Source: Octopus vulgaris (taxonomy: Eukaryota). Taken from it: 64,000 nucleotides of DNA. The translations under genes were made by a program, and so were the position numbers. The first letter of the stretch is position 1, and every line of letters begins with the position of its first letter. The stretch spans positions 21,824,001 through 21,888,000 of the forward strand of contig OX597818.1 of NCBI GenBank assembly GCA_951406725.2. Direction: 5' to 3'. A model generated the notes under the pieces. That model was given only the letters and a program-made list of their open reading frames with translations, was not told the DNA's origin and ran no database searches. This document shows, one piece after another, positions 15,819-47,807 of the stretch.

Positions 15819-16412
15819 AAAAGCCTCAATTCTCCTTTTACCTAATTTCCCCTTCATACCACATTAAATAAATCAGGTTGTATTTTCTATACTGGCAGTA
15901 TTACATTCTAGCCTTCCATACTCAAGGTTGATGGCAATAATTCCACTGGATCTACCAGTTCTGTTAAACATTAAATATATTACCACTGTTATGGTGTTAG
16001 TGATGGGGACCAACATTATTAAAGTTATTCTAATCGATTGTTACACATGAGTTAGCTTGGACAGTAAATATAACTAACTTCTTGTCATGCTATCCTGAAT
16101 ATAGTGATACGCTTAATAGAATGTGCAATCCCAAAAAGCAGGGGGAGAAAAATTGTGTATTATACACAAATACAGTTGTCACCAGCTGAAATTGAACATA
16201 GAACATAAAGAGATAATGAAATACTGCAAGACATTTTCTACTATATTCTATTGATTTTGTTACCCACCACAGATAATGAAGTACAAACTGTTGATTCTCA
16301 TCTTTTTTTATTTTTTGTTTTTCAAGCCATCTTCACATTGGCCCCGTTTCTGTAACAGCCACCATGACAAATTCCTTAGTTTATGTACTGTAATTTCATT
16401 TATATATATATA

Positions 16413-16457
<45 letters not shown>

Positions 16458-17289
16458 TATATAAATTATATACGTTTTTATTATCATTTTTTTGCAATTT
16501 ACTTAATCATTGACGTTTTATTGTTATTTTAATTTTAATATTTCTATTATATGTAATTTTCTAGATGGTGTAATTTAATTGTTCATTTTGAATTGATAAA
16601 AGGTGTTTTTTTTCTAATTTTTTATATATATATTATATTGTGTGAAATGTGATTTAGTATTTCTAAATTGAATTTTTTCCTTGTAAGTTTTGGATTTTAT
16701 TCCCTCAAATAATAATTGTTATTTATATATATATAATAGTAGGGAATATAATTTCAAAACTTACAGGGAAATCTTCAATTTAACAATTTTAAATCAAATC
16801 TCACAATGTATAATATGTATATAATTTAGAGAAAAACCTCTATTAAACAATTCATTAGTGGAAGATGTTATTCACACCATATAGAAAACATATACTATAA
16901 AAACCTTATTCTAAAAATCGATAAAGTACAATAAATAATAAATAGTAGTAAAAAGACTATGCGCGTTTCGTGGCTATATTTTCAAATTGATAATAATAAT
17001 AATAAAATCAATTCAATTTATAATTGAATCGATCTAAAATTAATTCTATTTAAAAATATAGTCACTCATGTGTATCAATATATTAGAATGACTATAATAA
17101 TGTTGGTCCCCATCACTAACACCATAACAGTGGTAATATATTTAATGTTTAACACAACTGGTAGATCCAGTGGAATTATTACCATCAACCTTGAGTATGG
17201 AAGGCTAGAATGTAATAAAGAAAATACAACTTGATTTATTTAATGTGGTATGAAGGGGAAAATTAGGAAAAAGGAGAATTGAGGCTTTT
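15819..17289. repeat. Local inverted duplication: 15819-16052 vs 17064-17289 (~230 bp arms, roughly 90% identical)
   Basis: GGTGTTAGTGATGGGGACCAACATTATT pairs with AATAATGTTGGTCCCCATCACTAACACC; TTCTAGCCTTCCATACTCAAGGTTGATGG pairs with CCATCAACCTTGAGTATGGAAGGCTAGAA. Confidence 0.95.
16585..17069. mobile_element. Two inverted AT-rich Penelope-like tail fragments (~16585-16705 vs 16741-16850); the minus-strand copy carries a truncated hammerhead (16955-17069)
   Basis: TTCCTTGTAAGTTTTGGATTTTATTCCCT vs AGGGAATATAATTTCAAAACTTACAGGGAA; minus strand ATGA-GTGACTATATTTT..AAAATATAGCCAC-GAAAC-GCGC. Confidence 0.55.
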
Positions 17290-18183
17290 TTCTCAGATTT
17301 TTCTCTCTCTGACCAGAAAAAAAGATGCTCTGATTAATTTCAACTATTACTAAAACTTCCATCAGAAATTGTTTAATTTTCTGTCCACATAACTATAAGC
17401 TACTATTTTCTCTGTAGGAAGAAAATAAGTGACCTTTGACATTAGTTTAATAAAACCTGAAACCAGTCACTATTTTTTGCTCTTGTTTTGACTAAGTATA
17501 GAAAAATTAGTGTTTACTTTTGACTATAAAATTAAATTTACTAAAGGAATATGCATTGAAGGTTTACCTTCATTTCATCTTTCTCTCTCTTTCTCCCTCC
17601 TTCCTTCATCCATATATGTTCATAATCTTATAAGGAGAATTATTATTCTGTTTAAACCCCCTTCTAGAAATATAGCATATGCTGAAGTTGAAAATAGCCC
17701 TAAACAGAAAATTAAATCAGCTGAGGTTAACTGTGGTTAAGAAATTTGCTTCTTAATTCCACAGTTCTAAATTCAGCCCCATTGTGCAGCAACTGCTTAT
17801 CTTCTTAACTCTTCACGAATCAAAGAACTGTTGCTACCATTGCGTGTGTATGGTTCCTAATAAAGATATTTATGTGTAATGCTGATGCATTTTTCAGGGC
17901 AGACACTTCAGAGTATGGCTGCTCCTAGATTGTATACATAATATCATTCAAAATACTGGTAATGTAAGAGAGTGTCTGACATTGATATAACTCTGTAATA
18001 TAATATATCACATTCCATATGTTAGACTTCAGGTATTAAAATTGATTTACATTAAAATCAATTTGATAAAAGCTGTTGTCAACTGCTCTGGACAAATTTT
18101 CTTAGTAAATTTGAATTGTGTTTATATCTTAAATTTCCCTTGATTCTGTTAAGGCAGTTTTAATTTTGAGAAAATGATATCTA

Positions 18184-19669
18184 CAGGGGCTGGACAAATA
18201 ATGGAAACACCTTAAAATTTCAAAATTTATTTTAATATGGGGTAGGCCTACCTTTGGTAGTAATTACAGCTTGAATTCTATGAAGTATGGATTCGTAAAA
18301 AGTTTGAATTGTTTCCAAAGGAATTTTTGTTCATTCTTCTACTAAAATAGTTTCCAGTTCTTGTAGTGGTGTTGATGGAGGATATCGACTCTTTACTTGT
18401 TTTTCTAAAATTCACCATAAATGTTCAATAATATTGAGATCTAGAGATTGTGGTGGCTAGATAAGATGTTCAACTTCACTAGAATGTTCCTCGTGCCATT
18501 CAGTAACAACTTCAGCTGTGTGAATTGGTGCATTATCATCCTGAAAGATTGCATTTCCCTCCAGAAACAGTTCAGCAACCATAGGATGAATTTGATCAGA
18601 TAGGTGGCACGTAAAATGCACCAATCCGACTGTGGCCGATGCCAGCCTCGCCTGGCACCAGTGCAGGTGGCACGTAAAAAGCACCCACTACACTCTCGGA
18701 GTGGTTGGCATTAGGAAGGGCATCCAGCTGTAGAAACTTTGCCAGATAAGACCGGAGCCTGGTGCAGCCTTCTGGCTTCCCAGATCCCCGGTCGAACCAT
18801 CCAACCCATGCTAGCATGGAGAACGGACGTTAAACGATGATGATGATGATGATGAAAACGCTTAAATAGTCTTGACTATTAATTCTGCCATGAAGGGAAA
18901 CCATTGGGCCAGCAGATTTGCGAGATATAGCACCCTAGATCATCACAGATCCTCCTCCATATTTAACAGTTGGAAGAAGGCAGTCTGGGATAAATGCTTC
19001 TTCTTTTGGCTGTCTCCACATGTATACTCAGCCAGTGGTCATAAATAAGGTAAAGGATGACTCATCTGAGAAAATAACATTCTTTCGCTGCTCTAGGGAC
19101 CTGTTCTGTTTTCATTCCACTCTAAATGTTTTGCAATGTTTGTTTTTGAAAGTAGTGGTTTTCTGATTGCAGCGCTCCCGTGAAATCGTGCTTTGTGCAC
19201 CTCCTGGCAAACAGATTTGTGGAAATTGGATTCTCAAGCTTTGCAGTAATTTTGGTAGCTGTACTTTTGTGATCCTTTCTAACAATTCATGTTAGAGTCC
19301 GATGGTCCCTATCTGAAAGTTTTGGTTTTCTTTCGGAGTTTTGTTTCAATGAGGAGGTTTTTCTCTCTTTCTCAAATGCTGTCATTACTTTCGAGACAGT
19401 AGTTCTTGATACACCAAACATTTCCGCTATTTTCATTATACTAGCACCAACAATTTGGACTTCTTTGAAAGTCCAAAAGATCTGTCATTTTAATGAATTT
19501 TAATTACCTTTTTCTGATAATATCTGAAAAGAAACAGCAATTTTAGCAGAACATATTAAGCAACACTAATAATAAATGAAAAGACATAAAAATAAACAAG
19601 CTTTTGACAGTTTTATAGATATTTCAAAATTATGATGCTAGGTGTTTCCATTATTTTGTACAACTCCTG
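18184..19669 (-). mobile_element. Full-length but decayed Tc1-like DNA transposon, DD36E catalytic spacing, TA target duplication
   Basis: TIRs CAGGGGCTGGACAAATAATGGAAACACC / GGTGTTTCCATTATTTTGTACAACTCCTG flanked by TA; transposase pseudogene from ATG 19488 to TAA 18232 with VIFSDESSFTL, TVKYGGGSVMI, FQDDNAPIHT, PQSLDLNIIEHLW, KGRPTPY*. Confidence 0.93.
18603..18854 (+). mobile_element. RTE-LINE 3' UTR fragment with (GAT)n tail inserted into the Tc1 transposase
   Basis: Ends CCAACCCATGCTAGCATGGAGAACGGACGTTAAACGATGATGAT, same terminus as 35184-35250 and 59631-59700; removing it rejoins YLSVLSDQIHP. Confidence 0.85.
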
Positions 19670-19769
19670 TATATTTCAAGTTAAATCTCCTTTTAATTTT
19701 TTATAGAAATTTACTAATATCTTAATTAGAATACTTATCTTTGTTGTTATCTTTGTTAGTAATATTGTG

Positions 19770-19975
19770 GTTTAACCCTTGGTCAACCCTGATTGAGTAG
19801 ACTTCTGATGATAGATTTCCCAGTTATGATCATTTCATCTTTTCACATGTAACAATTTACATGATCCAATGTGTCCTTTTAATCATGCTTTCTTTATGAT
19901 ATAGCATGATTTGAGCAAGATTTGGCTGCTGTTTCTAGCAGGGTGACTGCATAGCTGCTCCCTTGTTGAGTTGTT
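19770..19975 (-). mobile_element. SINE-like repeat family with (AAC)n tail; other copies ~1400-1600, 7000-7230, 31915-32360, 39270-39750, 45045-45240, 46625-46845, 53270-53480, 55850-55975
   Basis: Recurrent motifs GATTTGGCTGCTATTTCTAGCAGG, GACTACATTATCCAATGTGTCC, CAGACCTATGATCAAAGG in many degenerate copies. Confidence 0.7.
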
Positions 19976-20981
19976 TCAAATTCAATTTTGAGACCATTTG
20001 GACATTTAACTAGGTTATCTACAATAATTTATCTCAAGCACATTCTTAAAGCCAACTAACTCTGGAACAAAGAAACTACTCTGGCTTTCAACAGAGTCTT
20101 TCAAGTAAAGCACATACTGTGTTACTTTCTAATACCTCACATTGGTTTGTATTTATTCTGGTCTCTTATCCCAGCCACCACCACCACTACCACTAGCAGT
20201 TGGCTTGCTATTTAGAGTTGTTTGAGATACAGAAGATTCATTGTTTCAAAATCTTCTGTCTTTCTGTTCTTTAGATTTTTACTATCTGCTGATTGAAAAG
20301 AAATAAAAGGGAGGGTATTTTACTGGGTTATATATATGTCATTGAACCCTTCAAAAATTGTATGTAATTTGTCCCATTTAATTTTTGCTTGAATATAACA
20401 TGAATACAAATATAAAGACAAGCTATACTTTCTTTCTGCTTAGTCTTTTATAAATTGTAGTATCTTTGAATTGTTTAGGGTTTGTCTTTTATTGTTTCTG
20501 ATTATTTCAGTACTCCCCCTCTTATCTCTCTGCTGGTAATGATTGCTATCTGTCGTTGTAGATTAAATTTATCTCTTCACATCCCCCCATTCTCTCTATT
20601 ACTATTTTTCCTTTATGTGTTTCGATAGAAAGGCATTAGAGAATTTGGTAAGAATCCAACAGGAGTCTGATAGGAATAGATGAACAGGTTTTGAATTCTC
20701 TTATATATGCCTACACTCTATTTAAAAACTACCATTCTTGGTGTAGGGTTTGATTCGTCTTCAAACTCAATGAACATTTCAAATTATTGTTCCTGCACAT
20801 TAGCACTTAAATAGCCATTCTCTATAAGGACATTTCATTTTAGCACTTCCCCCAATCACATATACTCACATATAAAACTTCACTACTGTTACAGTTACTC
20901 AGTGTTCTCAATGTTTTTTTATGAAAACAATTTTGATTTCAATGGAAATAGAATGAAAAAAATCTCCACTAACTATTGTCC

Positions 20982-21908
20982 ACATTAACTATTCAGAGAC
21001 ATTTAGACATGCTTAATATTATTTTCAGTAGTAATACTGGAAAAAAAAATGATGGCTGTTGCCCACAAATCAGTATGACCTAGACACATGTACACACACA
21101 CACACACACACACACAGTCTTCTGGACTTCTTACCACATGGATCATCTGACAGCTGAGGGAGAAAGCACTAGGCTAGAACTCATTTTCAACTGAGTGAAT
21201 TCAAGTAACATGAAATGAAATGACTTGCTCAAGGATATAACATGCTGCCTACTTCAGAAATTGAATCCCAGCATCATGAACCCAACACTAACCACAAGAC
21301 AATGTACCTTCACACTGTATAAATGTAGTTCTGACATAATCAGCTGCATTACTTTTGTTGCATGATTGCAACTGTAACTAGTAAGGAATGTTGTTTCCAT
21401 TTAGGAACTGTACAAGCGAAGGGAGAGAGAGATTTAGCTTTCCACACTTTTCTGAAAATATCAGTGGTAAAAGTGAAGTGAATTAGCTTCAACATGATGT
21501 TAACACCAACTGACATGAAGTATTTGAATCTAACAGAGTGCATTGCCTTGCGGTTAGTTTTGGGTTCAATATACTGGGATTCAATTTTTGAAGTAGGCAG
21601 CATGTTGTGTCCTCGAGCAAGTCATTTCATTTCATGTTACTTGAATTCACTCAGTTGAAAATGAGTTCCAGCCTCGTGCGTTCTCCCTCCAGCTGTCACA
21701 TCTTCAATATTTTATTGTTCCATGTGGTAGGAAGGCCAGAAGAGTGTCTGTATTCACAACTATATATACACTGAATACAATTAGCAAAAACATGGTACAT
21801 GTGTCTAGGTCATACTGATTTGTGAGCAACAGCCATCATTTTTTTTTTTCTAGTATTACTACTGAAAATAGTATTAAGCATGTCTAAATGTCTCTGAGTA
21901 GTTAATGT
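20982..21908. repeat. Local inverted duplication: 20982-21307 vs 21538-21908, ~230-bp spacer, roughly 85% identical with indels
   Basis: CAGAGACATTTAGACATGCTTAATA pairs with TATTAAGCATGTCTAAATGTCTCTG; AACTCATTTTCAACTGAGTGAATTCAAGTAACATGAAATGAAATGACTTGCTC pairs exactly with its complement at ~21614-21667. Confidence 0.95.
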
Positions 21909-23476: not shown

Positions 23477-23479
<3 letters not shown>

Positions 23480-23529
<50 letters not shown>

Positions 23530-25090: not shown

Positions 25091-25130
25091 CCGATTGTAG
25101 TCAGTCACTCAAGACTGTCAGCCCAAGTTG
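25091..25130 (+). CDS. Candidate small exon (40 nt, or 30 nt from the AG at 25099-25100: SVTQDCQPKL), unidentified
   Basis: Pyrimidine-rich cttcctttcttgtacctgttaccttgatag acceptor and TTG|gtaagt donor. Confidence 0.3.
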
Positions 25131-25363: not shown

Positions 25364-25861
25364 CAGACACACACCACAAACTTACTATTTGCATGCTTTA
25401 TATTATGGTCCCTCTTGGATTTATTATTGAATATTAGGTAAGGAAGAACTCATTTTTAAAAGTTTCTTTTCTTTTTCTGCACTGTATTTTTAATATTAAA
25501 TTCATAGAGAAGTGAAAAGGGAAGGAGAAGCTCTTTGATACTTGCGATAGAATGTAATTGGATGAAGTTCCTTGTGTATCAAGGCGATGCTTAGTGAAAT
25601 TTCATTGTATATATTATTACAAGTGTCTTTGTTAAATGATGTGAATTCATTTCTTTCTAATGTCATATTGACATTTACAGAAAAAAATAAAGCAAGTGCA
25701 TTTATTTTTTTAACGTTTTTATTCAAAGGACAAATATTTTGCTGAATTTGTTGTTATACTATGAAATATTTGAACATGTTTTTCCCCTAATCTCAAAGCT
25801 TATATTATTGTTACATGCACACGTGCACACACGCACACACAATATATGCATATATAACATA

Positions 25862-26470
25862 CAGTGGAAGCTGTTTATTATAATTATGGATAATGTTATC
25901 AATTAGCTATCTATCTATTATCTGTGTTTGTAAACAAACATGCACATACACACAAAATACATGTGATATATAATATATGCATACATAGTGCAGTGAAAGC
26001 TGCTTATTATAATCGTGGATAAGATTATCAACTGGTTATTGCTACCAAAATTAATGGGTCCAAAACCCCATATTTAAAGTAAATTAATAATTATCTGCTT
26101 ATGAGAATTAAAGTCCTGAATGTTATCAAAATTTTCAAATATATTGCAATACAGCCACAATCTCTATGGAGATTTTTTTTAAAAAAGTGCCGCTTGCTAT
26201 GGAGACACGGTAGGGTGTGGTTATGATGGTAATGGTGGTGGTGGTGGTGGAATCATGTTTGTGTTAGGAGTGGAGATACCTGTTCAAGTTTGGTTGATGT
26301 GGCTAATGGCATTGATATATATGTATTTAGACAGAAGAAGCTATTTGTCATGATCATGGATAATATTATCAAATGGTTATTGTTATCATAATTAGCAAGT
26401 CACAAACTTTATTTAAAAGAAATTAATATTATTTATCTATTTATTAGAATCAAAGGGTCAGATATTATAT
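25862..26470 (+). repeat. Three diverged direct copies of a pogo/Tigger-like MITE left end (25862, 25991, 26332)
   Basis: CAG(T/A)(G/A)(G/A)AAGCT..ATAAT/ATGAT..TGGATAA..TTATCAA recurs three times; the first copy is preceded by TA. Confidence 0.55.
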
Positions 26471-26809
26471 TCCTTAACTAATGTTATCAGGCAGTTATTG
26501 TTCTCGAAATGGCTTTTCATCAAAGTGATAAAAAAGTGATCTCTATAAAATATATATATATATTTTATTTAATTTAATAACTCATATGTGTTTGCATGTG
26601 TTTTATATTTTTAAAACTAAATTGTAGACATTATATGATCCAGTAACATTTACAAAATCTTCTGTCTAAATACATAAATGGAGACTGTGTGGTAGTTTAT
26701 CATATATAATATAATGTAAGTGCAGTACAACTGAATGATTAAGAATATTTTGCTTTGCAGCCATGAAATCCTGGGCTCATTCCCACCATGGCATCTTGGG
26801 CAAATATAA

Positions 26810-27192
26810 TTTCTGTAGTCTTAGTTCAATTCATACCTTGAGAGTGGCAATTAGACAGATGGAACTGGTATAGAAGCTCATCAGGTGAAATGTACTCATA
26901 ATTCAAAAGATATAGCCTTGTTGCACACAGTGTCATACTTGTTGCACACGGTGCCTAGAATTATAGTAAGGGTACACGTGCTTATGGAATATTCAGCCAC
27001 TTACATGTTTAATTCAGGAAGAGATAATTCAGTTCCACCATCATATATATAATGATAATGCATTATAACTTCAAGTTTCATACTTCGTTAGTGCTAAACA
27101 ATTATCAGATAAAAAGAAATTCAGCTGATCATTAAAATATAATTGACATGTCACTGATATTTTAGTATGTGGAGTTTCCAGTATCACATCCT
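26810..27192. repeat. Donor segment B (SINE 3' part plus unique flank), copied inverted to 30600-31003; its part 26966-27137 also has an older direct copy at 27477-27649
   Basis: Near-exact reverse complement of 30600-31003 apart from one 21-bp repeat unit and one substitution seen. Confidence 0.95.
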
Positions 27193-27788
27193 AGGATAAA
27201 AAGTTTAAAGTGGCATAGTCCATTACTTGTTAATATTGTTGGGATGAGTTATTTTTAACTTTCATTGTTAGAAATATAGTCTTGGAATACTTATGTAAGG
27301 TGAAAATGTATAAATATATTTGGAGATGAGGAGAGAAGGAAAGTGTATAAAAAGCTATTTGGAAAGAAATATAAAAAGTTAGAGTTGAAAATGTAATGTA
27401 ACAATATATTATCATATATAATAAGATCTGGAGTGGCTGAAATTGAAGAGGGAAATTGAGAGTTTCATTGTTTCTGGTAAGGATACATGTACCTATGGAA
27501 TATTCAGCCACTTACATCTTTAATTCTGGAACAGATAATTCAGTTCCACCATCATATTATATAATGATAATGCATTGTAACTTCAAGATTCTTACTTCGT
27601 TAATGCTAAACAATTATCAGATAAAAAAAAATCCAACTGATTATTAAAACGATAATTTATTTAGGCATTGAATTTATTGCTACATAAAAATTAATGTAGA
27701 AGGATAAATAGTTGGCAGGGTTATAAAGTGTGTTGTTTAAATATTAGTAATATCAGGAATATTTGTCATAAGGTTATCTTACAAAAAA

Positions 27789-27842
27789 TAATCTTACATT
27801 TCCCTCTTCATACTTAAGTATGAAGAAGGAAATGTAAGATTA
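27789..27842. repeat. 54-bp spacerless palindrome centred on TT|AA
   Basis: TAATCTTACATTTCCCTCTTCATACTT|AAGTATGAAGAAGGAAATGTAAGATTA, 26 of 27 pairs. Confidence 0.95.
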
Positions 27843-29926
27843 CTCCTAGTAAAAATTTAGGTGTCAATCTAATTATTCAAGTGTTAGTATAATCTTCCTA
27901 TGTTTCAAGAGATACTTTTTGAAATAGCAGCAGTTAATTAATATTTCTAATCAATATTGAATAGTTTGCAGATTTAAGGTTTCACAATATGAAATTCTTC
28001 TCAGCTATACATAACTTACATCATTTTGCCCTGTTTCTGTGTGGTGTATATCACTCAAGAATCTTCCATTTGATATTCATACTGCTAGCATTTACTTAAA
28101 AGTGTTAGATATAATTGGATAGTTGCATTGTATTCCTCATACCTGTATCTCTGAAGGAAGAATTATAGTTAAAGTATCATTGTTTAAATTTACCTTCCAC
28201 TATAGATTAGGAAAAGTTTGCTTTTCAATAAAGTTTCTGCTTGTGTTAAGAAAAAAAAATCTCCCAACAGCTGCATTTGAAATCAACATAGGGTCATTTG
28301 CAATCTTGTTGGCCTATATATACCAAACGGATTCTAAATTTGCATCTGTAAATATTGATTCATATTGAGACACTGCATTGACAATATCCCAGCATGCCAA
28401 TGCACATTATTGAAGATACTTTTGAAAAAGACCTTATTTCAGATTTTTAATCCTTAGTAAATATATGGATTTATTTCTTCCAATAACTTCTCTGAAATAA
28501 CTCGCGATGTAGATGGCATTGGGTTGGGTAGCTTTTATATTTATTATATTTCTAATTAGACTGCCAAAGGCAATAGCAGTATATGTGTATTTTAAAAATA
28601 AAAACTGAAGCAAATTTGCAAATGCTATTTGATGTTAAAAATAAAGGAGAAAGAATAAAAACTTTTAAAGTCAAGCCACCATATCACTATCGACAGCGCC
28701 ATCATTATTCCTATGTTCTTCATCATCTTTATTTGATCTTCCATTTTCCTATACTGATGTATTTGAATAGCTCTACATTTGCCTTCATCTGTTTCATCTC
28801 AGTTCTGAGAGCCAATAACAATTATTTCTTACATTGGTTAAGGTTTTTAAGGGTGGTATTTAATTGGTTGAACTGACTAAGGCATGAGAGGTACCTATTT
28901 TGTTTTCCTTTGAATGGATAAAATGCACATGAAAGTATTTACTCTGGCAATCTACCACTTATGCCACTCCACCCTCATCATTTATTATAAGCATATTCTG
29001 ATTTGTATTGGGATAAACAATTGGAAGTGAAGAGATTCATGCCTTCAAGAGTTATGCTCCAAGCTCTTTCAACATGAGAAATAATTCATAAATTTGTTAA
29101 TTTGTAAATGATGTACTTTCACATAAGCCATGATAAACTTAGCCTGTCACCTTGTTTGGCATCACTGGTTGGTTCCTGGATACCTTCAGTGGAATCCACT
29201 AATTTGCAAGAATTTGAGCCCTCTCTCCTGTCTGAGGATAACTTATTCCTTACCTCTCACCAGTCTTGGAGACCATGAAAAATTTCATGGGCATTTCTAT
29301 TCCTACTCTAAACCATAACAAAAAAATATTTTTTTAAAGAAAAATACAATACTGATAATGGAAATATCTTTTAGAAAGGACATGTGAAATATTCGTGATT
29401 GTATCAAGTTTAAGGAGGCACTTTATAAGTAACAATACAGCTTACATTCTATGTCAGCCCTAAAACATAGGTCATTGGCACGAACATTTTCTGAATGTAA
29501 AACTGTCTTTGCATACAAAATTACTGAAGATAAGAGAACAAACGAATGTATGTGTTTAATTATTCAAAAATGGACATTAATACCTTTCTAGGTGAGATAA
29601 TGGATATAAATATCTTTATCAATGTAGAAGAAAAAGTGTAAGGTATTGTTAAAGTGAGACATAAAAATATTGGTCAAGATAAGTAAACAAGAGTATCCCC
29701 CTCCACACACACACACACACACATTTTGTGTATGTGACTTTATACTTACAAATTAACTAACAGCCAATACATTACATGAAGTAAAGTTGGTATGTTTTTT
29801 GTTTGTTTATTGGTTAGGGATCTGTGCAGTTATGTGCTGCCCAGTCATTCATCAGATGACTTTCTTTTCTTCAAATGCCATCTGATGCATCTTGTCAGCT
29901 CAAAAGTTTAAGTAATGTCTCTTTAA

Positions 29927-30148
29927 CCCTTTAGCATTCAGATTATTCTGTTAAATATAATGCTTATCTATTCATGTTGTTTTGAATTAATTATGCATTT
30001 ATATTGCAGTTTTGAAATTTTGACGATGTGATTGTTTATTTTTTAGAATTTCATTGCAGGGTAGGTGTGAGAGGCCAGATATGGCCAGTTTGAACAGAAA
30101 ACATGTAGAATATTTGGGCTGGATATGACCAGTTTGAATGCTAAATGG
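29927..30148. mobile_element. piggyBac-type MITE (~220 bp)
   Basis: TTAA (29923-29926) then CCCTTTAGCATTCAGA; right end TTTGAATGCTAAATGG (2 mismatches); the right TTAA is split by the 30149-31543 insertion. Confidence 0.75.
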
Positions 30149-31543
30149 TCACTACCCATGTCTTCTAAAAATCTCACTACCCATGTCTTCAACACTTACT
30201 ACATTCCTCTCCTCCACTCTCTACTCATGCTTCTTTGGCAATACCCTACCATTTACATTATGACCTCCATACTTCAAGGGTATGCCTTGGCACTTGCCAC
30301 CATCCCTCTCCTGCTCCCTCTTGTACTCCTGCTGTCTCCCACCCTCTTTTTCCTGCTCTTCTCTCAGGTTGGGTAACCATGTATCTCCTTTACAGTAGCA
30401 CACCTCATTTCTTTCTCTCTCTCTCTGGCTGGGTAACCATGTACCTCCCCTACAACAAGACACCTGTTTCTATCTCTGCCTCACTATAACCTTTCATCAT
30501 CTGACACAAGATTCCCACTTCCAATTCCCCTTCCTCTCTCAAAGGATCTTTGTTTTGCAAGTTACTGGGTGACCCTGCCAGTGCTGGTGCCACTTAAAAA
30601 GGATGTGATACTGGAAACTCCACATACTAAAATATCAGTGACATGTCAATTATATTTTAATGATCAGCTGAATTTCTTTTTATCTGATAATTGTTTAGCA
30701 CTAACGAAGTATGAAACTTGAAGTTATAATGCATTATCATTATATATATGATGGTGGAACTGAATTATCTCTTCCTGAATTAAACATGTAAGTGGCTGAA
30801 TATTCCATAAGCACGTGTACCCTTACTATAATTCTAGGCACCGTGTGCAACAAGTATGACACCGTGTGCAACAAGTATGACACCGTGTGCAACAAGGCTA
30901 TATCTTTTGAATTATGAGTACATTTCACCTGATGAGCTTCTATACCAGTTCCATCTGTCTAATTGCCACTCTCAAGGTATGAATTGAACTAAGACTACAG
31001 AAAATGGTATTAAAAAGCAGGATTTATATGTTAATCCTAGCAGAATCTTCCTGTAAGTTAAACAATATAATTTTGAGTTATATCTGTAAAGGTTAAATGA
31101 ATAGGTAAGATATTGAATTACCAATACAAAGGCCATGTTATGTTCCAAACTCACTGCTATTTGAGCAGAATATGAGGAGACTTTATTCCATGTAACTCAG
31201 CTTACCAAACACTCAATATTAGGTATTATAGCATCCTCAAAGATTTCCTCTTATACATTAGTACTCTATCTACATTATCGATAGCTGTTTTATTTAGGTC
31301 TTTTGTAGTACTGTATATGAAGGCATATGGCATTGTGGTTAGGATGTTAGACGCATGATCATAAGGTTTGATTCTAAGATTGAGCAAGTAGCACTTCATT
31401 TCACATTGCTTCATTCTACCTAGCTGAAATGAGCATGGATTGAGTGCTGATGCAGTCCTCTCTTCCTCTAGCTTCACATACTAGATATTCTGTTGTTGAG
31501 GGTGGGAAGGTTCAAGAAGGTTTCTATGTTTGCTCCACCTAAA
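30149..31543. repeat. Composite templated insertion: A 30168-30601 = rc(33750-34183); B 30600-31003 = rc(26810-27192); C 30999-31543 = 37783-38327
   Basis: Near-identical sequence (paired ORFs 30235/33862, 30221/33888, 31226/38010 in the ORF track); junction microhomologies AG, AGAAA, TAAA; 17-bp false start TCACTACCCATGTCTTC at 30149-30165. Confidence 0.95.
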
Positions 31544-32447
31544 CATATTTACACACACATATTTCTGTTCTTGCCTAACTGTCATAGCTCTGTGAATCCC
31601 TAATGTCTGCTCAGATATAGTCATGAAAGCCTGGTTTAGTGATATACAGATACACACATCTTTGCTCTTTTTTAAAGATTGCTTTGCTAAAGTTGGTGAT
31701 TTTATTTCTCATGCCAATGGATTGTACACTGGCTTTGTGCCTTCAAAGACATGTGGAATAAAATATCCCTTGAGTGACAGGTATGGATTAGCAACAAGAA
31801 GAACATCTGATTGTAAAACAATGCCTCAGTAATATAATCATCTAATCCATACTAGCATGAAGAATAAAACAGACATGAAAATGAATGATTAGATTTTAAT
31901 GAACTTGTTATTATCTAACCATAATGTCAGCCTTGATCTAGCAGATCTTTGATCAAAGGTGCACCTGTCATGACCATCCCATTTTCTATTCAGACAGTGT
32001 ATCTAGGATTACATTGTCCAATGTATTTTTTTAAAGATGGATAGGAAGATTTGGCTGTTATTTTTGGCTAGTCAGGGGACCACTTAAGGACTAACTTATT
32101 GGCTTGTGCTGGTGCTTATTACTATCGTTGGAGGTTGTGGTTTTGTTGGTCATGATGGTGTAAATGGTGGTTGTGATGATAGCACTGTTGTTATGCCCTA
32201 GGTCATCTGTGATCAAACAGACATGATTAAAGGTACCTCAATTATGACAATCCATTATCTAACACATCCTTCTTTTTTGTTTTTAAGATGGTATGGTTTG
32301 GTTTAAAGGAGATTTGGCTGATATTTCTTGTCAGTCAAGCGACCATGTGGAAGCACCGAAAATGATTTTGTTTAATGTTGAGTAATAACAAACAGTCAGA
32401 GGGAAAAATGGTTTTAAAATATTTAAATATTGTTTTATCTCTTTCAG

Positions 32448-32497
32448 AATTACACCTACAACCCACCAGTTGAAAAACCTGGAGATTTCAGCGCATA
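32448..32497 (+). CDS. Candidate 50-nt coding exon (NYTYNPPVEKPGDFSA.. or ITPTTHQLKNLEISAH), host gene unidentified
   Basis: ttgttttatctctttcag acceptor, gtaaga donor, GC-richer apparently unique sequence between AT-rich flanks. Confidence 0.55.
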
Positions 32498-32778
32498 GTA
32501 AGAATCTTTTCTTTTTAATTTAAAAAATATATAGTTTTTATATTTTATTTCTATTTATTTTTTTGTGATTAAAATAACAGCTTTCAAAATGGAACATGGA
32601 TTGATTTAACAGCCCTGTGTAATAATCAAATGAGTTACCATTAACAGACAGCTTGTATATCTTCCTGTCTATACCAACACTGCTATGTTGTGTTTTAATT
32701 TATTACTCCAATCACATATATGTTTATAAATCTAAAACTGTTTGTTTAATACATCCATGTTGCTCTATTTTTTAACAT

Positions 32779-33487: not shown

Positions 33488-34183
33488 TCATCATCATCAT
33501 TGTTTAACGTCCACCTTCCATGCCTGCATGGGTTGGACAGTTTGACAGGAGCTGGCCTAGCAGGAGCCTGCTCCAGACTTCTGTGTTTGTTTTGGCAGGG
33601 GTTTTATTGTGGGATGGTCTTCCTCATCGATCACCCAGCAGAGTGGACTGCTTTTACATGCCACCTGCTCAGGCGAGGTCAGTTTGGCATGGTTTTTTAT
33701 AGCTGGATACCCTTCCAAACACCAACCACTTTACAGTGTGGACTGGATGCTTTTTAAGTGGCACCAGCACTGGCAGGGTCACCCAGTAACTTGCAAAACA
33801 AAGATCCTTTGAGAGAGGAAGGGGAATTGGAAGTGGGAATCTTGTGTCAGATGATGAAAGGTTATAGTGAGGCAGAGATAGAAACAGGTGTCTTGTTGTA
33901 GGGGAGGTACATGGTTACCCAGCCAGAGAGAGAGAGAAAGAAATGAGGTGTGCTACTGTAAAGGAGATACATGGTTACCCAACCTGAGAGAAGAGCAGGA
34001 AAAAGAGGGTGGGAGACAGCAGGAGTACAAGAGGGAGCAGGAGAGAGATTGTGGCAAGTGCCTAGGCATACCCTTGAAGTATGGAGGTCATAATGTAAAT
34101 GGTAGGGTATTGCCAAAGAAGCATGAGTAGAGAGTGGAGGAGAGGAATGTAGTAAGTGTTGAAGACATGGGTAGTGAGATTTT
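33488..34183 (-). mobile_element. RTE-tail-type retroposon copy; 33750-34183 is donor segment A
   Basis: (CAT)n then TGTTTAACGTCCACCTTCCATGCCTGCATGGGTTGGAC, the reverse complement of the RTE 3' terminus; related fragments at ~8330-8600, 10340-10495, 34300-34540, 51235-51440, 51710-51860. Confidence 0.7.
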
Positions 34184-35183: not shown

Positions 35184-36540
35184 ATCATCATCATCGTCGT
35201 CATCATCGTTTAATGTCCGTTTTCCATGCTAGCATGGGTTGGACGATTTGACTGGGGTCTGGGAATCCTTGAGGCTGCACCATCATCATCTGGAAAAGAC
35301 TTTCTAACTAGAAAGGGTATGGCCTGGTCAGCCTGTAATGACATGCATAAGATCTGGTCATCAAATCTAAGTAGAGACTTCAAACTTGAAATATTCAAAG
35401 CCACAGTCGAACCAATTCTACTATATGGCTCAGAAACCTGGACGTTATCAAAGAAGCTTGAGAGGCGGTTGGATGGAACCTACCCTCGCCTCCTTATGAG
35501 AGCTCAAAATCTCTCGTGGAAGTGCCATCCAACCAAAATGCAAATATATGGGAAATTACCACCTGTGTCATCTCTTGTGAAAGGTAGGAGAGTCCAGTTT
35601 GCTGGACATTGTTGTAGAGCTGAAAAAGAAGTAATTTCTACTCTTCTCCTCTGGAAGCCATCTACTCGCAATACCAGAGGGCGCACACTCTCCTACCCTG
35701 ATGTAATCTCCAGGGATACAGGCATCCAGCAACAGGACCTCCGTAATGCTATGATGGACCGTGAAGTCTGGCGTAACATAGTAAATTCCATTGTCTCGAC
35801 CATGGTCGAACAATGATGATGATGAGGCTGCACCAGGCTCCAGTCTGATCTGGCAGTGTTTCTGCAGCTGGATGCCCTTCCTAATGCCAACCACTCCATG
35901 AGTGTAGTGGGTGCTTTTTACATGCCACCAGCACAGGAGCCAGAGGAGGCTGGCAACAGCCACGATCGGTTGGTGCTTTTTATATGCTACCGGTACAGAA
36001 GCCATTCAAGGTGGCGCTGGCATCGGCCACATTCAGATGGTGCTTTTTATGTGCCACCGGAATGGGTATCACAACTACAATTTCCATTTGATTTTCATTT
36101 TGATGTTGATGTACTTGACTCAATAGGTCCCTTCAAGTACAGCAGGTCACCCCACAATCCAAGGTACTTTTGAATGGGCTAGGGCTGGTTATACGAAACT
36201 GGTGTAGGATACAGCCGTGAACTCACTTTATTTGCTGGGTCTTTGCAGTCACAGCATATCTCCAGAGGTCTCGGTCTTTCATCATTGCCTCTGTGTGGCC
36301 CAACGTTTGAAGGTCATGCTTCACCACCTCATCCCATGTGTTCCTGGGTCTACCTCTACTCCAGATTCCTTCAACTGTTTGGGAGTGGCACTTCTTCACA
36401 CAGCTCTCCTCATCCATCTGTAGTACATGACCATACCAGCGCAAATGTCTCTCTTGCATGCCATATCCGATGCTTCTTATGTCCAACATTTCTCTCAGAG
36501 CGCTTACACTCTGTCATGCATGCACACTGACATTACACAT
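35184..36540 (-). mobile_element. 5'-truncated RTE (BovB-like) LINE: C-terminal ORF remnant, 3' UTR and (GAT)n tail, interrupted by a second LINE
   Basis: ORF 36223-36489 MQERHLRWYGHVLQMDEESCVKK..VEG..RGRPRNTWDEVVKHDL..DRDLWR is the typical RTE C-terminus. Confidence 0.88.
35283..35822 (+). mobile_element. 5'-truncated RTE/RTE-X-type LINE nested in the previous element, 13-bp TSD
   Basis: Open frame RKGMAWSACNDMHKIW..FKATVEPILLYGSETWTL..RLDGTY..RRVQFAGHC..AMMDREVWR; TSD TGAGGCTGCACCA at 35270-35282 and 35823-35835; (GAT)n tail. Confidence 0.92.
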
Positions 36541-37782: not shown

Positions 37783-38327
37783 AGAAAATGGTATTAAAAA
37801 GCAGGATTTATATGTTAATCCTAGCAGAATCTTCCTGTAAGTTAAACAATATAATTTTGAGTTATATCTGTAAAGGTTAAATGAATAGGTAAGATATTGA
37901 ATTACCAATACAAAGGCCATGTTATGTTCCAAACTCACTGCTATTTGAGCAGAATATGAGGAGACTTTATTCCATGTAACTCAGCTTACCAAACACTCAA
38001 TATTAGGTATTATAGCATCCTCAAAGATTTCCTCTTATACATTAGTACTCTATCTACATTATCGATAGCTGTTTTATTTAGGTCTTTTGTAGTACTGTAT
38101 ATGAAGGCATATGGCATTGTGGTTAGGATGTTAGACGCATGATCATAAGGTTTGATTCTAAGATTGAGCAAGTAGCACTTCATTTCACATTGCTTCATTC
38201 TACCTAGCTGAAATGAGCATGGATTGAGTGCTGATGCAGTCCTCTCTTCCTCTAGCTTCACATACTAGATATTCTGTTGTTGAGGGTGGGAAGGTTCAAG
38301 AAGGTTTCTATGTTTGCTCCACCTAAA
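37783..38327 (+). repeat. Donor segment C (545 bp), direct copy at 30999-31543
   Basis: No differences seen by eye; ORFs 38010-38261 and 31226-31477 translate identically. Confidence 0.95.
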
Positions 38328-38725: not shown

Positions 38726-38757
<32 letters not shown>

Positions 38758-41154: not shown

Positions 41155-41210
<56 letters not shown>

Positions 41211-41460: not shown

Positions 41461-42730
41461 CAATGATAATTGGATAGCAACATGTAAATACTTTACTGTT
41501 ATTTCTCCTCACTATTTTGGAAAAAAAGACCTATATCCAAAATATTGATGTTTTCCCTTTCTCTCACAACAAATATTTATAGTTTTATTACAGTTTTCCA
41601 TTATTTTAATTAAGACAGTTTCTCTATTAAATAAAAGTGATTCTTGTACTCTGCTAAAGTGGTTAAAGTAAATATGCAGTGCAATAACAGTAAAGAGCAA
41701 GATATGTATAAAGGTGCAATGTATTTACCCTCCTGCTTTACTTTACAATTTTCTTTCTTCTGTTTTGAACCTTAAGACTCCTCAGGCTAGTGACCCAGTT
41801 TCCATAGCATATAAGTGACTGAGATCACAACGTTACCCTTGAATGGACACTGGTCTGTCACATAACTGTAGAGGATGAAACAATGTAAAAGGAAGTGATT
41901 TGCTGTAGAATACAATGCACCACTCAGTCCCAAAACCAAAGCCCTAATCTAATGATTGTGAATGCAACACCCTAATCACAAGGTCACTCACCTTCACAGT
42001 TTTCTTTATCAACCTTTAATGGCAACAAACAAGACAACTTGTTTGTAGTAAATTAATTTAAGGATCCAAGCAAGAACACACGTTTGGCAATTAGAGAATC
42101 CTGATTTAGAATCTATTTGGAATTTCATTAACTTCGATATAGAAAGGGTCAAATGTTCTCTTAGCAAAGTGTAAACATACAGAACCCTGTAGTTTCACAA
42201 AAAATGGTGTTAGAAGCTTGGAAATGTACAAAATAGTATTGCAAAACAAATAAATTTATTATCAATTCTGTATAGATTAATATTTGATCTTTCATAAAGT
42301 AATTTGTTGGATTAATATTCAAAATTATAAAAGAGCATTGTTTGTGTGTGAGCACAATGCATGTTGCAATTTCTGATGCAGCCAATATCACATCTACACT
42401 TTATTCAAGTGCTTAGCTGTTTATATGATTCATTTCAATTAGAACATAGTTTGAAATTACTTTTTATTTGAAAATTGCTTTTTTTTCTAATATAGTAGTT
42501 TCCACACTGAGCAATGTGACACACTGACATAACACAAGATGTGAAAAATAGCAATGTTGTTTACTGTTTAAAGAAATAACTACTTAATCATTTCTATAGT
42601 TGGAATTATATATATATTTGTATCCTAAAATATGTAAATATCTTAGTGCTCTTGTAACAAGGTGCATCAAAATAGTTTTAATTGCTCGAAGGTGTGTTGT
42701 GAATAAAATAAATATAAATAAAAATGCAGT

Positions 42731-44970
42731 CATTTGATGAAAGCTTCTGCCTGCACCATCAGACCTCAGCTCTCTTTGCCAAATTTTTACTAATTTTAAA
42801 TACTGATTTTTTTTTTCTTCTTCTTCCTTGTTTTTCCAACACAGACAATCATTGTTTCTACAAACTCTAGTAATTTCCTGTAGAAGCAGAGTTAGATACC
42901 TTTGTTCAGCAACACAGTACAATAACAATAGTATGAACTAAGCCTATGACTATGTGATCAATATTCTGCCTGAAACTTATATCCATTACGCCTCATAAAT
43001 AGCACAATAAATATATATTCAGAAATGTACTAAATCAAAAATTTATTAGCTTTATTTTCATCCAAAATTAACAAAAACTTTGTCCTGCATCTATAAACAA
43101 TTCATCAGTTGTTCGATTTCTTTTGGTCAAAGATGTTAACTGGTTTGATGAGAAAACTTGTTCTTATACTAGTAAGACCATTAGAAAGCTCAAGAACTCA
43201 TCATTCAGAGATAGAAGGGAATATATAAAAATAAATGCAATATTTTAAGATTATTTAATAATATTTTGTGCAATCAGCTCAGAACAAACTTGCAATGGTT
43301 AGAAGAATGTCATTTCAAATTGCATTTTATTGTTCTTTCATATAGTGTTACTTACCTTATAATTTATCATTTCACTGTTGATAATAGCTGTGTTGTTATA
43401 TTCTGGAAATGAAAAAAACTCTCATGGTCTAACTGCAGTTAAAATGCTGGAAGAGTGGGGGGTTCAAAAGAAGTTTTAGCTAGAAATGTAGAACAAATGA
43501 ATCCAGAACCAAAGTCTTTGGAAAACGCACATTAGGTAATCATCATAATATATTTTTCTGGAAAAAGAAAAGAAATAATTGCATACTGTCAACTTAATGT
43601 GACAGTCCCATGAAGGGAATAATGGCAGTTCCAGTGCTATGTACATATGGAAAGAATAAATAAGAATTATGTAGAGAATGCTACAGGTTAAAAATACATC
43701 AAAGAATTCTTGGAGTGAAGAGGTTTCTTATGAATCTGAAATTTAGTAGGAGTGTTTTGCAGCATTTAAAAATTTATTGCACCATACTGGTATGGTGTAG
43801 ATTAGTCTACTAAACAAGTTAATGCTCAAATGTGTATAGCAAAGCATAGATCAGGATCAATTGGCCAACAGCTGCAATAAGATTTGGTGTATGAGGACAT
43901 TTACATTTGGAATAGAAATGTCATGGCTGAATATTCTGTCCAACAGCTGCCACTTTGACATACTTAAACATTATAAAACTGCACTTTTGTATATTTGTAT
44001 AATACAAGCTGTAGGCTGGAAAACAAAACATGAACTTCAGTAGTGTGTAAATTTATAATGTCTCTGTAGGTGATTATATTCTGTTCTTTTATCTTTCGGC
44101 ATTATTGAACCCATTTTGTTTTGTTCAGGCATGCATAAGTTGATAAGTGCTCAAATTAACATTTCTGTGGAGTATTTAAAAAATTGGGACTTAACAGTTG
44201 AACAACCCACTCATATGGGAAGCAAGAATGGTGCCTATTTTTCAGCTAGATAGATTACTCTTATGCATGCCTGAAATATTTGATAATTTAGCAAAATAAT
44301 TAGGCTTGAAATGTGCTAAATAAATACAGGTATATATGAAATTATAAAATCTAGATAGTCAAAGAAAATAACTGTTTTGTTATAAATTAGAAATTTACAT
44401 TTTAGATCTTCAATAACTTTCATCTCAAGTCTTTTTATAAAGTAAAAGAGAGAAGATGCAGTACCCATGATCTTTGTACACTCACTGAGACTCATGGTAC
44501 TGATGTAGCTTATGCCCATGGTTCAAGTATTTTCCAAGTGTGATCTGGTTTGAATATTTACAGGAGTTGAACCCTACTAATGGCACTTAACTTCTTAATC
44601 ATTCATGTTATTTTTTCCCTTATTCTTTTGTCACTAATTATTAGATAAACTGGAGCAAGTATAGACAAGTTCTCAATTTACAGTCAGGGCTTGCATTTGA
44701 TGAAAGGTTCTGCTTGCACCATCAGGCCTCAGCTCTCTTTGCCATTTTTTTACTAATTTTAATAATTGATTTTTTTTTTGTTCTTCTTCCTTGTTTTTCC
44801 AACACAGACAGTCATTGTTTCCACAAACTAATAATTTCCTGGAGAAGCAGAGTTAGATACCTTTGTTCAGCAACACAGTACAATAACAATAGTATGAACT
44901 GAGCCTATGACCATGTTATCAATATTCTGCCTGAAACTTATATCCATTACACCTCATAAATAGCACAATA
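42731..44970 (+). repeat. Local direct duplication: 42731-43009 vs 44694-44970 (~280 bp, roughly 90% identical)
   Basis: AGAAGCAGAGTTAGATACCTTTGTTCAGCAACACAGTACAATAACAATAGTATGAACT is identical in both copies. Confidence 0.95.
43356..43402 (-). CDS. Candidate 47-nt minus-strand exon (xYNNTAIINSEMINYK)
   Basis: tttttttcatttccag acceptor and AAG|gtaagt donor; only one frame open; opposite strand to the other candidates. Confidence 0.25.
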
Positions 44971-47099
44971 CAATTTTCATTTCTCCAAAATTAATTTAAT
45001 TAAAAAATAAAATTATATGCTTTAAATATTTTAACTATTTTGTTTAGTCTCAAGTTGGCTATCACTGAGCATATCCATGATTAAAAACATTCAAGCTTTG
45101 ACTATTCCATCTTTTTGTATATGTCAGACTACATTGTTTAATGTGTCCTATTTTTTTAAGATATTAGGAAAGAATTTACTATAGATTCAGCTGCTATTTC
45201 TTGCAGGTCAAGCAGCCACATAGATGCTTCTCATTAGATTCTTTCAAACTTAATCATTTTTAAAGCAGTCAAATATTGTGTAGAGCAGTAAGTATACTGA
45301 AGGAAGATTGAAATCTTTCAAGATGAGAATTAGTCTATTCCAAAAGTTAAAAAGAACTGATGAATGGTAAGCAATTAACTTGTATTCTTAAAAGAATATT
45401 GCTTTACACTGAGAAAACAAGTGCGTGTGTGTGAGAGAGAGAGACAGAGAGAGGGATAGCTATGTGCTAAGACGTTTGCTTCCCAACCACATGGTTCTAG
45501 GTTTAGTTCCACTGCATGGCACCTTGGGCAAGTGTCTTCTACTATGGTGTTGAGCCAACCAAAGCCTTGTGAGTGGATTTGGTAGATGGAAACTGAAAGA
45601 AGCCCATTATGTGTGTGTGAGTGTTTGTGCCTGTGTTTTCACCTCCTCCCAACACCACTTGATAACCAGTGTTGTTGTGTTTATGTTCCCTTAACTTAGT
45701 GGCTTGGCAAAAGAGTTCAATAGAATAAGTACCAGGGGTGGTTTGATTGACTAAAATTCTTCAGAATGGTACCCTAGCATGGTCATAGTCTAATGAGTGA
45801 AACAAGTAAAAGATAAAAGATAGGTATATATATATATTTACACATATTCAAATCTCTACATAGTTGTGTTTAACCATAACCTATTGCTTATGTCATGCTT
45901 TAAGTTATCATTCAACATCACTTAGAAAATATCAAATTTTGAATTTCTGTTTATGACATATATTATGTTTTAATGATATATATTAAATTGAATCATGCTT
46001 AAGATAACGCCAAATTTTCAAACACCCAACAAACTACATCTAGTGAATTGGTGAAGTTAAGTCATCTAAATTTGCAAGTGATCTTTTAATATGTTAATAT
46101 CTCATGAATGGCAAAAGTAATAAAAGTAATGAGAAAGAAAATTAAACAAAACAGTAAAAAAAAAAATAGATGAAATTATATAAAGGGCAGGTATGGTTGT
46201 GTGGTAAGAAGCTTGCTTCCCAACCATGTGATTCTGGGTTCAATCCCATTGTATGGCACCTTGGGCAAATGTTTTCTACTATAGACTTAGGCTGACCAAA
46301 GCTTTGTAATTGGATTTGGTAGATGGAAACTGGAAAAAGCTCATATATATATATATTCATGTTTCTGTGTGTATGTGTGTCTTTGTGTCTGTGTTCCCCA
46401 CCACCACCACCACCACCTCTTGACAACTGGTGTCAGTTTGTTTACATTCCTGTAATTTAGTGGTTTGGAAAAAACCGATAGAATAAGTTGCAAGCTTACA
46501 AAATAAAAGCATTAGGCTTGATTCCTCTGACTAAAAGTCCAAGGTTGTGCTCCAGCTTTCATGCAGTTAAATGACTGAAACAAATTCAATTGTAACTATC
46601 ATCATTGTCATCAACATCATCATTGCTGAGTTAACAAGGGAGCCTCTATGTGACCAGACCTGCTAGAAAAAGCAGCCAAATATCTATCAAATCATATCTT
46701 ACAATATCACACTGAAGACAAAGGGCACCTTGGATAATGCAGTCCTGTGGAACACTTTGTTCAAATTAAAGTTGATTTAGTAACAGCTGGAATGTCTTTG
46801 AGTGTAGGTCTGCTCGATTAGCACTGACATGAGTCAAGACAACATTGCCAATCATTGTCATTATTTCAGTGGCTAATTTCTCATGATTTTATGAGTTGGG
46901 CAAGTTGTCAAACTCTCTCTACACTCTCCCTATCAGTGATAGATAAAATGTTACTAAACCTCAAAAACAATGATTTTATTCAACTTCAATCCTGGATCTG
47001 CACTTCTCTGTGACAGATTTGATGCAGCTGATTTTCGCTTTACATATCTGTTAGGTGCTGAAGGAAAAATGTGAGCAGGAACAGAATTTCAGTGGCTTT

Positions 47100-47530
47100 T
47101 CATTTTGGGGAGTGAGGAATGGGTAAGTGTTTAGTGATGTATTTGGTCTTTAAAAGACATAGTAAAGGTAGATTGTGGAGGACATGTATTGAAAGGACTT
47201 GACAGAGAACTTGTTCAGAAGAACAGAAGTCATAATAGCAACAGGAAAGGCAAAAATGAAACAGCATTATCTGAGCTAGTGGTTGAAGTGCAAGAGTTAG
47301 TGAATCTTTGCCAAACTGACTAATTTTCTTTTGATTTTGCCTATGATGTTTGTGTGCAAAGTTGTAACACCATCTCATATATATTAGCAGTACTCCAATG
47401 TTGGCCTTAATTAAGTTTTGTAATAGTGAGTAGATATGAATGTCTAGAGGGGGGACTCCTCCTTCAGCCAGGATATTTTTGGCTAGACAGAGTACAGAAG
47501 TGAAATGTAAAATAGACCCTAACAAGTGAG
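47100..47530 (-). mobile_element. Old I/Nimb-type LINE relic; a possible endonuclease remnant of a similar element lies at ~49085-49450(-)
   Basis: NILAEGGVPPL resembles the post-RT SLLAEAGEPPL motif; otherwise heavily decayed. Confidence 0.35.
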
Positions 47531-47807
47531 TGTTTCATACTAATGGAGACATTTCTACTTCAAGTTTAAGTAGTTCAATATTTTAGAGATTCATTTCAGT
47601 TGTGAAATGAAAGGTTAATTTTAACTTTAGAGGAGAAAAATGATATAATGGACAAACAATCAGTAGACACTATTACATTTTTATGTTGTTTGTCTCATTT
47701 CCATTTCTCTAGCCAAAAATATCCTGGCTGAAGGAGGAGTCCCCCCTCTAGACATTCATATCTACTCACTATTACAAAACTTAATTAAGGCCAACATTGG
47801 AGTACTG
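47388..47807. repeat. Perfect 100-bp inverted duplication: 47388-47487 vs 47708-47807, 220-bp spacer
   Basis: CAGTACTCCAATGTTGGCC..GGATATTTTTGGCTAGA is the exact reverse complement of TCTAGCCAAAAATATCC..GGCCAACATTGGAGTACTG. Confidence 0.97.

Follow-up and report, generated by a model that had tools for sequence, protein, structure and literature searches.

Local copies of neighbouring DNA in a 64-kb window of the Octopus vulgaris genome are probably repair-mediated duplications

In a stretch of 64,000 nucleotides of the Octopus vulgaris genome (assembly GCA_951406725.2, contig OX597818.1, positions 21,824,001 to 21,888,000 of the forward strand), which we refer to as "the window", segments of DNA have repeatedly been copied to positions some hundreds or thousands of bases from their donors, and we consider it quite probable that these local copies are repair-mediated duplications. 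In such an event, a germline DNA break would leave a free 3' end that pairs, via a few matching bases, with DNA hundreds to thousands of bases off; once it had copied this nearby DNA, the paired end would be joined to its counterpart, and a local copy, inverted or direct, would remain. The preliminary description of the window had proposed templated insertion at breaks, and this is directly supported for two events that have an empty site, the first of them with enriched microhomology: a 1,390-bp insert built from three nearby donors and a 40-bp fold-back insertion that has created a palindrome; the process itself is a known one (PMC2671141). Five copied pairs (E1, E2, E3, E5 and E6) and a 19-bp inverted copy are ascribed to this process solely because they resemble such events. 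The best classification of the copies is not a new system but an already known class, repair-mediated duplications, in a lineage new to it.

Pairs of copies have been found and measured by self-BLAST and alignment within the window, which is repeat-rich and has a G+C content of 34%; distances are Jukes-Cantor (JC) distances. The area between positions 25400 and 32770 has also been compared with contigs from four of 24 listed sequencing runs (X1, X2, X3 and X16): X1 and X2 are labelled as one organism, X1 being a possible source of the window, and X16 is the outgroup run.

The three-donor insert

The insert occupies positions 30150-31539 and is composed of a 16-nt false start and three segments, A, B and C, whose donors lie on both sides of it, at distances of 3.1 kb (A), 3.4 kb (B) and 6.2 kb (C) (Table 1). 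It is located at the edge of a miniature inverted-repeat element, and the insertion has cost only three bases of the TTAA that flanks this element. The empty site is found in X3, where position 30149 is joined to position 31540 with three letters (TAA) between; in comparison with this site, the insert has no tail and no target duplication, and tails are also absent from the ends of the other arms, as had been described. In X2, 29 letters of record 22 run off the window at position 31540, which is what an empty allele would show; given the organism label that X1 and X2 have in common, polymorphism of the insert is likely. The missing insert junctions in the contigs of X2, X3 and X16 do not by themselves prove absence. 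Segment C is found within longer contigs, both sides of which continue in X2 and X3, with one visible side in X16. In X1, by comparison, the limits of segment C (30999-31543; depth 86, versus 59-64 beside it) coincide exactly with contig ends; contigs also break at part of segment B (30885-31003; depth 117), while the contig 31514-31771 crosses the right junction. This bridge validates the assembly, but it does not represent an independent animal, since X1 may be the source of the window.

The joints of the insert share 1, 2, 5 and 4 nt of microhomology, where random joins in the region share 0.76 nt on average (P = 0.0015 for the sum; P = 0.004-0.009 under stricter scoring, in which the restart junction contributes 0 and the first junction 0 or 1); microhomology is enriched at the insert. 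Further matches are located close to two of the joints: an 8-nt match 11 bases away from the second joint, and a 6-nt match at the third.

The copied DNA had been described as unique, but it is only partly so: parts of segments B and C are at baseline depth, whereas most of segment A is a high-copy repeat (summed contig depth of 16,000-217,000, versus 45-95 in plain bins); according to contig depth, parts of B, C and E3 also overlap repeats. Donor A is 99.3% identical to segment A, while the other repeat copies among those listed are about 88-90% identical. The copies run across boundaries between repeat and plain DNA, in agreement with the preliminary description, as is seen at the baseline-depth bins 27122-27367 and 31058-31303. 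Segment A differs from its donor at three positions, all of them inside an 18-bp stretch (30288-30305), a cluster that could reflect a short conversion or a donor from the other haplotype.

The palindrome and the 19-bp inverted copy

A 54-bp palindrome at positions 27789-27842 has been formed by the 40-bp fold-back insertion, its joint being closed by the self-complementary TTAA. The empty site is found in the outgroup: record 9 of X16 covers positions 26596-27773 and 27814-29692 consecutively, without positions 27774-27813. This record differs from the window in 147 of about 3,050 letters (4.8%) and includes both copies of E3, which are present in every run that covers their site; since both copies are present in this outgroup record, E3 (8.9% diverged) predates the split from X16. 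Taken together, E3, the palindrome and the probably polymorphic insert indicate that the process has left products before the split, after the split and within the species.

The 19-bp inverted copy matches its likely donor with an exactness that is rare by chance: such a match occurs within 1 kb in none of 30 Markov simulations, and within 10 kb in one of 30. Both this copy and the palindrome could have been made by short synthesis of the polymerase-theta type. Several false-start duplications at junctions had been described: these are clear at the insert (16 nt) and at the palindrome (8 nt), while the other edges are at the level of chance, with false starts of at least 8 nt at four of 24 other arm edges versus about 2.6 expected at random.

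Table 1. Features of the window that are related to the local copies; the arms of a pair are compared in the row of the first arm.
Feature	Positions	Relation	Mismatches/aligned letters (JC)	Remarks
E1 arm	15819-16052	inverted partner 17064-17289	10/225 (0.046)	donor and copy not polarised; two-copy within the window
E1 partner arm	17064-17289			adjoins AT-rich stretch with old inverted repeat
E2 arm	20982-21318	inverted partner 21533-21908	24/312, plus large indels (0.081)	
E2 partner arm	21533-21908	inverted relative to 20982-21318		
Likely donor of 19-bp copy	26320-26338			within third copy of older local direct repeat
19-bp inverted copy	26658-26676	inverted match to 26320-26338		
Donor B	26810-27192			holds E3 first copy; spanned by single contigs in X2 and X3
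E3 first copy	26966-27144		16/179 (0.095)	inside donor B
E3 second copy	27477-27657	direct		found in outgroup run X16
40-bp insertion	27774-27813	8-nt false start, A run, inverted copy of adjacent 27814-27842		
Miniature inverted-repeat element	29923-30149			high-copy, piggyBac-like; TTAACCC-type ends; right TTAA holds the break
False start	30150-30165	16-nt inverted copy of 34161-34176		followed by two extra bases
Segment A	30168-30601	inverted 33750-34183	3/434	
Segment B	30600-31003	inverted 26810-27192	1/383	one extra 21-nt unit
Segment C	30999-31543	direct 37783-38327	0/545	last 4 nt common to right flank
Donor A	33750-34183	alignment to segment A		
Donor C	37783-38327	alignment to segment C		
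E5 arm	42731-43009	direct partner 44694-44970	17/277 (0.064)	not polarised
E5 partner arm	44694-44970	direct relative to 42731-43009		
E6 arm	47388-47487	perfect inverted partner 47708-47807	0/100 (0)	not polarised
E6 partner arm	47708-47807	inverted relative to 47388-47487		

Proximity and ages of the local copies

Self-BLAST and alignments have recovered all the copies that had been claimed, 0-9% diverged and at distances of 0.2-6.2 kb from their donors, with E2 recovered as 20982-21307/21538-21908; in the pairs that do not involve the insert (E1, E2, E3, E5 and E6), the partners are 0.2-1.7 kb apart. The copied segments are inverted in seven of ten cases, and the listed copies add about 2.6 kb, i.e. 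4% of the window.

Nine pairs in the window are at least 90% identical (eight BLAST rows and a 100-bp pair that BLAST had merged), and eight of them are located within 7 kb; one of these eight, 27477/30826, only follows from two others. The proximity has P = 2e-5 under uniform placement and P = 1e-4 in comparison with the multi-copy repeats of the window (38 of 148 within 7 kb), and because of these values independent insertion of dispersed repeats fails as an explanation. The ninth pair, 35712/49677 (94.7% identical, 14 kb apart), has been rejected as a local copy, as it corresponds to the 3' end of a long interspersed element (LINE): positions 35214-35813 and 49677-49790 are truncated LINE 3' fragments, 94.7% identical over 114 bp and independently inserted, both in or beside a short TGA/CAT-type run. 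The clustering of six events in half of the window is not significant (P = 0.11); for eight events, P = 0.035.

The JC distances of the events range from 0 (E6 and segment C) and 0.003-0.007 (segments B and A) up to 0.095 (E3), a spread that fits the persistent process that had been proposed. At the octopus rate of 0.0036 per million years (PMC13282606), the copies would be roughly 0-13 million years old.

Possible further local repeats have been observed in the window. At positions 25813-26455, a direct repeat is present locally in three copies that are about 63-75% identical (74% for 25997-26113/26338-26455) and are probably older products of the same process. The AT-rich stretch 16465-17063, directly beside an E1 arm, contains an old inverted repeat (16541-16705/16741-16901, 82% ungapped) and may be either a foldback element or an older inverted copy; the idea that this stretch is mitochondrial DNA has gained no support, no long open frame being found under table 5 (the invertebrate mitochondrial code). 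Two candidate local copies are a 20-bp inverted match 601 bp apart (6069-6088/6689-6708), partly composed of TA repeat, and a weak, 71% identical direct pair 1.1 kb apart (36244-36345/37419-37517).

Comparison with known systems

Repair-mediated duplications have been described in vertebrates by Pace, Sen, Batzer and Feschotte (2009, PMC2671141), with 824 human cases whose donors lie mostly within 5 kb: the copies are at least 50 bp long (mean 162 bp, maximum 619 bp), have microhomology, a short deletion or filler at their junctions and no poly-A tail, cover a range of ages, and include 20 two-donor chimeras and one polymorphic case. The copies of the window share with this class their sizes, distances, chimeric acceptors joined at microhomology, junction types and polymorphism; they differ in that the survey of Pace et al. 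is restricted to vertebrates, while here an invertebrate has three local donors and a false start in a 1,390-bp insert. When the insert is held against the criteria of Pace et al., an empty orthologous site is found, along with a donor within 5 kb (for a chimera, at least one) and, at the joints, microhomology, a 3-bp deletion, a 16-nt templated filler and no poly-A/T tail; with regard to their single-donor filter, the arms are two-copy in the window, and segment A is mostly high-copy, yet closer to its local donor than to the other copies listed. Being located at a TTAA on the edge of an element, the insert would probably be missed by their pipeline, which needs an acceptor within an annotated transposable element; because their detection requires an interrupted annotated element, counts obtained here and by Pace et al. 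are not comparable.

Synthesis-dependent microhomology-mediated end joining (SD-MMEJ), which involves polymerase theta, produces short insertions, together with new inverted repeats, from templates that lie no more than 30 bp from the break (Khodaverdian et al. 2017, PMC5728401; Yu and McVey 2010, PMC2943611). Its repeated rounds of synthesis fit both the 40-bp palindrome insertion and the 16-nt false start, and the palindrome has the motif arrangement described for SD-MMEJ (PMC5728401), a repeat motif of at least 4 bp with its far end no more than 30 bp from the joint and with primer and microhomology repeats: its template, 27814-27842, ends 29 bp from the break. SD-MMEJ insertions, however, are mostly shorter than 15 bp, which leaves copies of 100-550 bp from kilobases away unaccounted for. 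Single-copy Pack-TIRs (elements with terminal inverted repeats), formed by gap filling in animals, capture nearby DNA (mostly within 5 kb) with a median microhomology of 2 bp (Tan et al. 2021, PMC8277862) and resemble the insert in the capture of nearby DNA at a DNA transposon with microhomology; their captures occur inside the element and are skewed towards internal positions, whereas here the break is in the flanking TTAA and nothing is packed between inverted ends. Insertions from fork stalling and template switching, or from break-induced replication that is mediated by microhomology (FoSTeS/MMBIR), also show iterative template switches, microhomology and templated insertions of hundreds of bases, but those reported accompany large disease rearrangements (Gu et al. 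2016, PMC5120786), while the copies here are small and local, with intact flanks.

Within its scope, with subscription literature mostly outside it, our search has found no paper on repair-mediated duplication in octopus, and none on molluscs by title. The doublets of Thomas et al. 2004 are reported to be 25-100 bp long and mostly on the same strand, from which the copies of the window differ in being longer and in having seven of ten segments inverted. The shared features are short, local, non-tandem copies about 1 kb apart, as doublets are described in PMC2671141.

Mechanism and alternative explanations

The insert could have been produced by two-ended synthesis-dependent strand annealing: the left end of the break would have copied A and switched to B, the right end would have copied C, and the two tails would have annealed at their longest homology, 5 nt exact with 6 more nearby. 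Several points weigh against this account and against repair-mediated duplication in general. An empty site is available for only two of eight events, each time from one contig of one run; the joint in X3 has been read without its side lengths, and the X1 junction contig has a short side of 26-30 letters, under the 31-letter rule. The palindrome is polarised by a single outgroup, and a deletion in X16 could account for the difference. The two-copy status of the arms of E1, E2, E5 and E6 applies within the window only. Three donors and 1,390 bp exceed the record of Pace et al., two donors and 619 bp (PMC2671141), and template switching at a replication fork leaves the same joints.

Such fork switching (FoSTeS/MMBIR, U-turns), in which no two-ended break occurs and the nascent strand hops between nearby templates and returns, is the main rival, although we regard it as quite improbable. 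Its hallmarks are templated insertions and successive switches with microhomology (PMC5120786), the spacers of E2 and E6 are only 220-230 bp, and the extra unit of segment B points to slippage; on the other hand, the strand would have had to return to within at most 3 bases of its departure after visits 3-6 kb away on both sides, for which two tethered ends are the simpler explanation. Sequence alone cannot separate fork switching from break repair. Reverse transcription of an unspliced transcript into the break receives much less credence: if both ends took part in the repair, the segment orientations (inverted, inverted, direct) imply that the false start and each of the three donors were read from the + strand, 25 of 32 blocks of the window have more T than A, weakly hinting at + strand transcription, and fragments of LINE reverse transcriptase are present, but four of eight orientation patterns would fit the + strand by chance, no host gene has been found in the searches described below, and DNA templates explain all the observations.

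As the origin of the arms, transposable elements (Helitron, LINE transduction, miniature inverted-repeat elements) that inserted independently or made local hops are highly improbable, if marginally more credible than an RNA template. In their favour are the repeat content of segment A and of parts of B, C and E3, and a boundary of E2 about 8 bp from the 5' end of what we take to be a short interspersed element (SINE), the E2 arm 20982-21318 being presumably SINE-like in part. Against them are the continuation of the copies through repeat/plain boundaries and a proximity P of at most 1e-4; a Helitron end pair (A/TC...CTRR/T, slashes marking the element ends) has been found at none of 11 arms on either strand. 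For the insert, independent insertion of an element is refuted, as a single insert mixes inverted and direct segments and has no tail and no target duplication. Least credible of all is that the near-identical copies (the insert and E6) are assembly or amplification chimeras: their divergence is 0-0.7%, there is no sign of the insert in X2, X3 and X16, and E6 is known from the assembly alone, but short-read contigs of X1 break exactly at the segment ends and cross the right junction, both flanks of the insert are kept almost to the base, and the pairs that are 4-9% diverged, including E3, which is common to X16, cannot be chimeric. Repair-mediated duplication thus remains our preferred explanation of the local copies, which are likely neutral scars.

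The break sites

Both mapped empty sites are of the form GG/TTAA, with the slash marking the break (27773/27814 and 30148-30149/31540); there are 29 such sites in the window, and a break falls on one with a chance of 0.05-0.3% per random break, or 0.7% of 4-nt palindromes. At the insert, the break adjoins the miniature element, whose TTAACCC-type end motif is that of piggyBac-like elements (PMC12324416): TTAA borders the element on both sides, the contigs of its other copies diverge just outside TTAA, and the empty site in X3 restores the right TTAA. The element ends with TGG instead of GGG, an end also seen in X1, X2 and X16, in 46-61 contigs of each run. The piggyBac transposase cuts at the 3' end of the element and four bases into the flank (PMC7351741), and 474 recently active piggyBac insertions are reported in O. 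vulgaris (PMC13282606); resection of a one-ended cut of this kind would lose the TTAA and leave ends exactly where the junctions allow them. A transposase-made break at the insert is possible, if doubtful, and the recurrence of GG/TTAA at both breaks, two cases that were noted after the fact, hints at a piggyBac-type nuclease. TTAA is found within 6 nt of only two of 22 unpolarised arm edges and GG/TTAA at none of the 22, which speaks against a general transposase origin, and most captures at DNA transposons are independent of transposition (Tan et al., PMC8277862). The earlier view that the process is not transposition accordingly holds for the copying, while the breaks may be transposase-made.

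Other features of the window

No host gene has been found by a crude scan of the window for splice sites, or by a Pfam search of 95 of 218 candidate frames and a few long ones, where the only two matches, to DUF6451 and to part of a reverse transcriptase, scored below the curated cut-off; a search of Rfam gave no match. An intronic position of the copies, and the contribution to intron expansion that had been suggested, are accordingly conjectural. Two short + strand stretches with splice-like flanks have been observed, 32449-32498 and 17898-17959, and a single homologue search with the former as a candidate exon found no homologue. A reverse-transcriptase-like fragment (weak Pfam RVT_1) is located at 59659-60015, and we take the fragments at 3315-3830 and 11120-11377 to be like a LINE endonuclease region and a mariner-type transposase, respectively. 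The block 48102-48535 is GC-richer and CpG-rich, with a CTAG motif at its end after a short hairpin-like stretch, and is presumably Helitron-like.

Density, fold-back RNA and implications

The window, a single and selected one, contains six events of at least 50 bp in 64 kb; on this count, which is looser than that of Pace et al., the density is 94 per Mb (95% interval 34-204). The density reported in vertebrates is 0.08-0.65 per Mb of transposable-element DNA, with a total of 133 kb in the whole human transposable-element fraction (PMC2671141). At the human density, a window like this one would have P = 5e-12, a value too low to be explained by selection among 250,000 windows, while a density of 10 per Mb would lead one to expect about 14 windows of this kind. 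It is thus likely that the actual rate here lies well above the value published for vertebrates. That value is a lower bound after filtering, in which most of the events described here would be lost, and the comparison extends to vertebrates only; resting on different methods and one selected window, it does not establish an excess.

The inverted copies would form long RNA stems only if their arms are transcribed together. Folding predicts a 100-bp stem for E6 (z = -28). Among the 25 longest inverted pairs within 10 kb, all nine that are at least 90% identical belong to the local copies, whose perfect stems are 54-296 bp long, in comparison with 12-22 bp in seven pairs of dispersed repeats. 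In animals, young repeats and fold-back regions are preferentially edited (bioRxiv 10.1101/2020.01.19.911685), and in squid most edits in untranslated sequence overlap annotated repeats (PMC9068888); a link between the inverted arms and editing is a prediction, according to which the inverted copies would, if transcribed, be the best editing substrates in the window.

A broader conjecture, which we think improbable as a whole, is that octopus genomes carry local repair duplications at tens per Mb (50-150 times the vertebrate density), many of them at piggyBac-type transposase cuts (element ends and look-alike GG/TTAA sites), and that these mostly inverted patches, instead of old SINE pairs, are the main source of near-perfect intronic fold-back RNA for the editing enzymes. 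The breaks at GG/TTAA suggest a testable cause. If the density of the window proves ordinary, the copies would be a clean invertebrate example of a known mutational process; if it applies to the whole genome, octopus DNA would have grown to a sizeable and uncounted extent through the repair of breaks.

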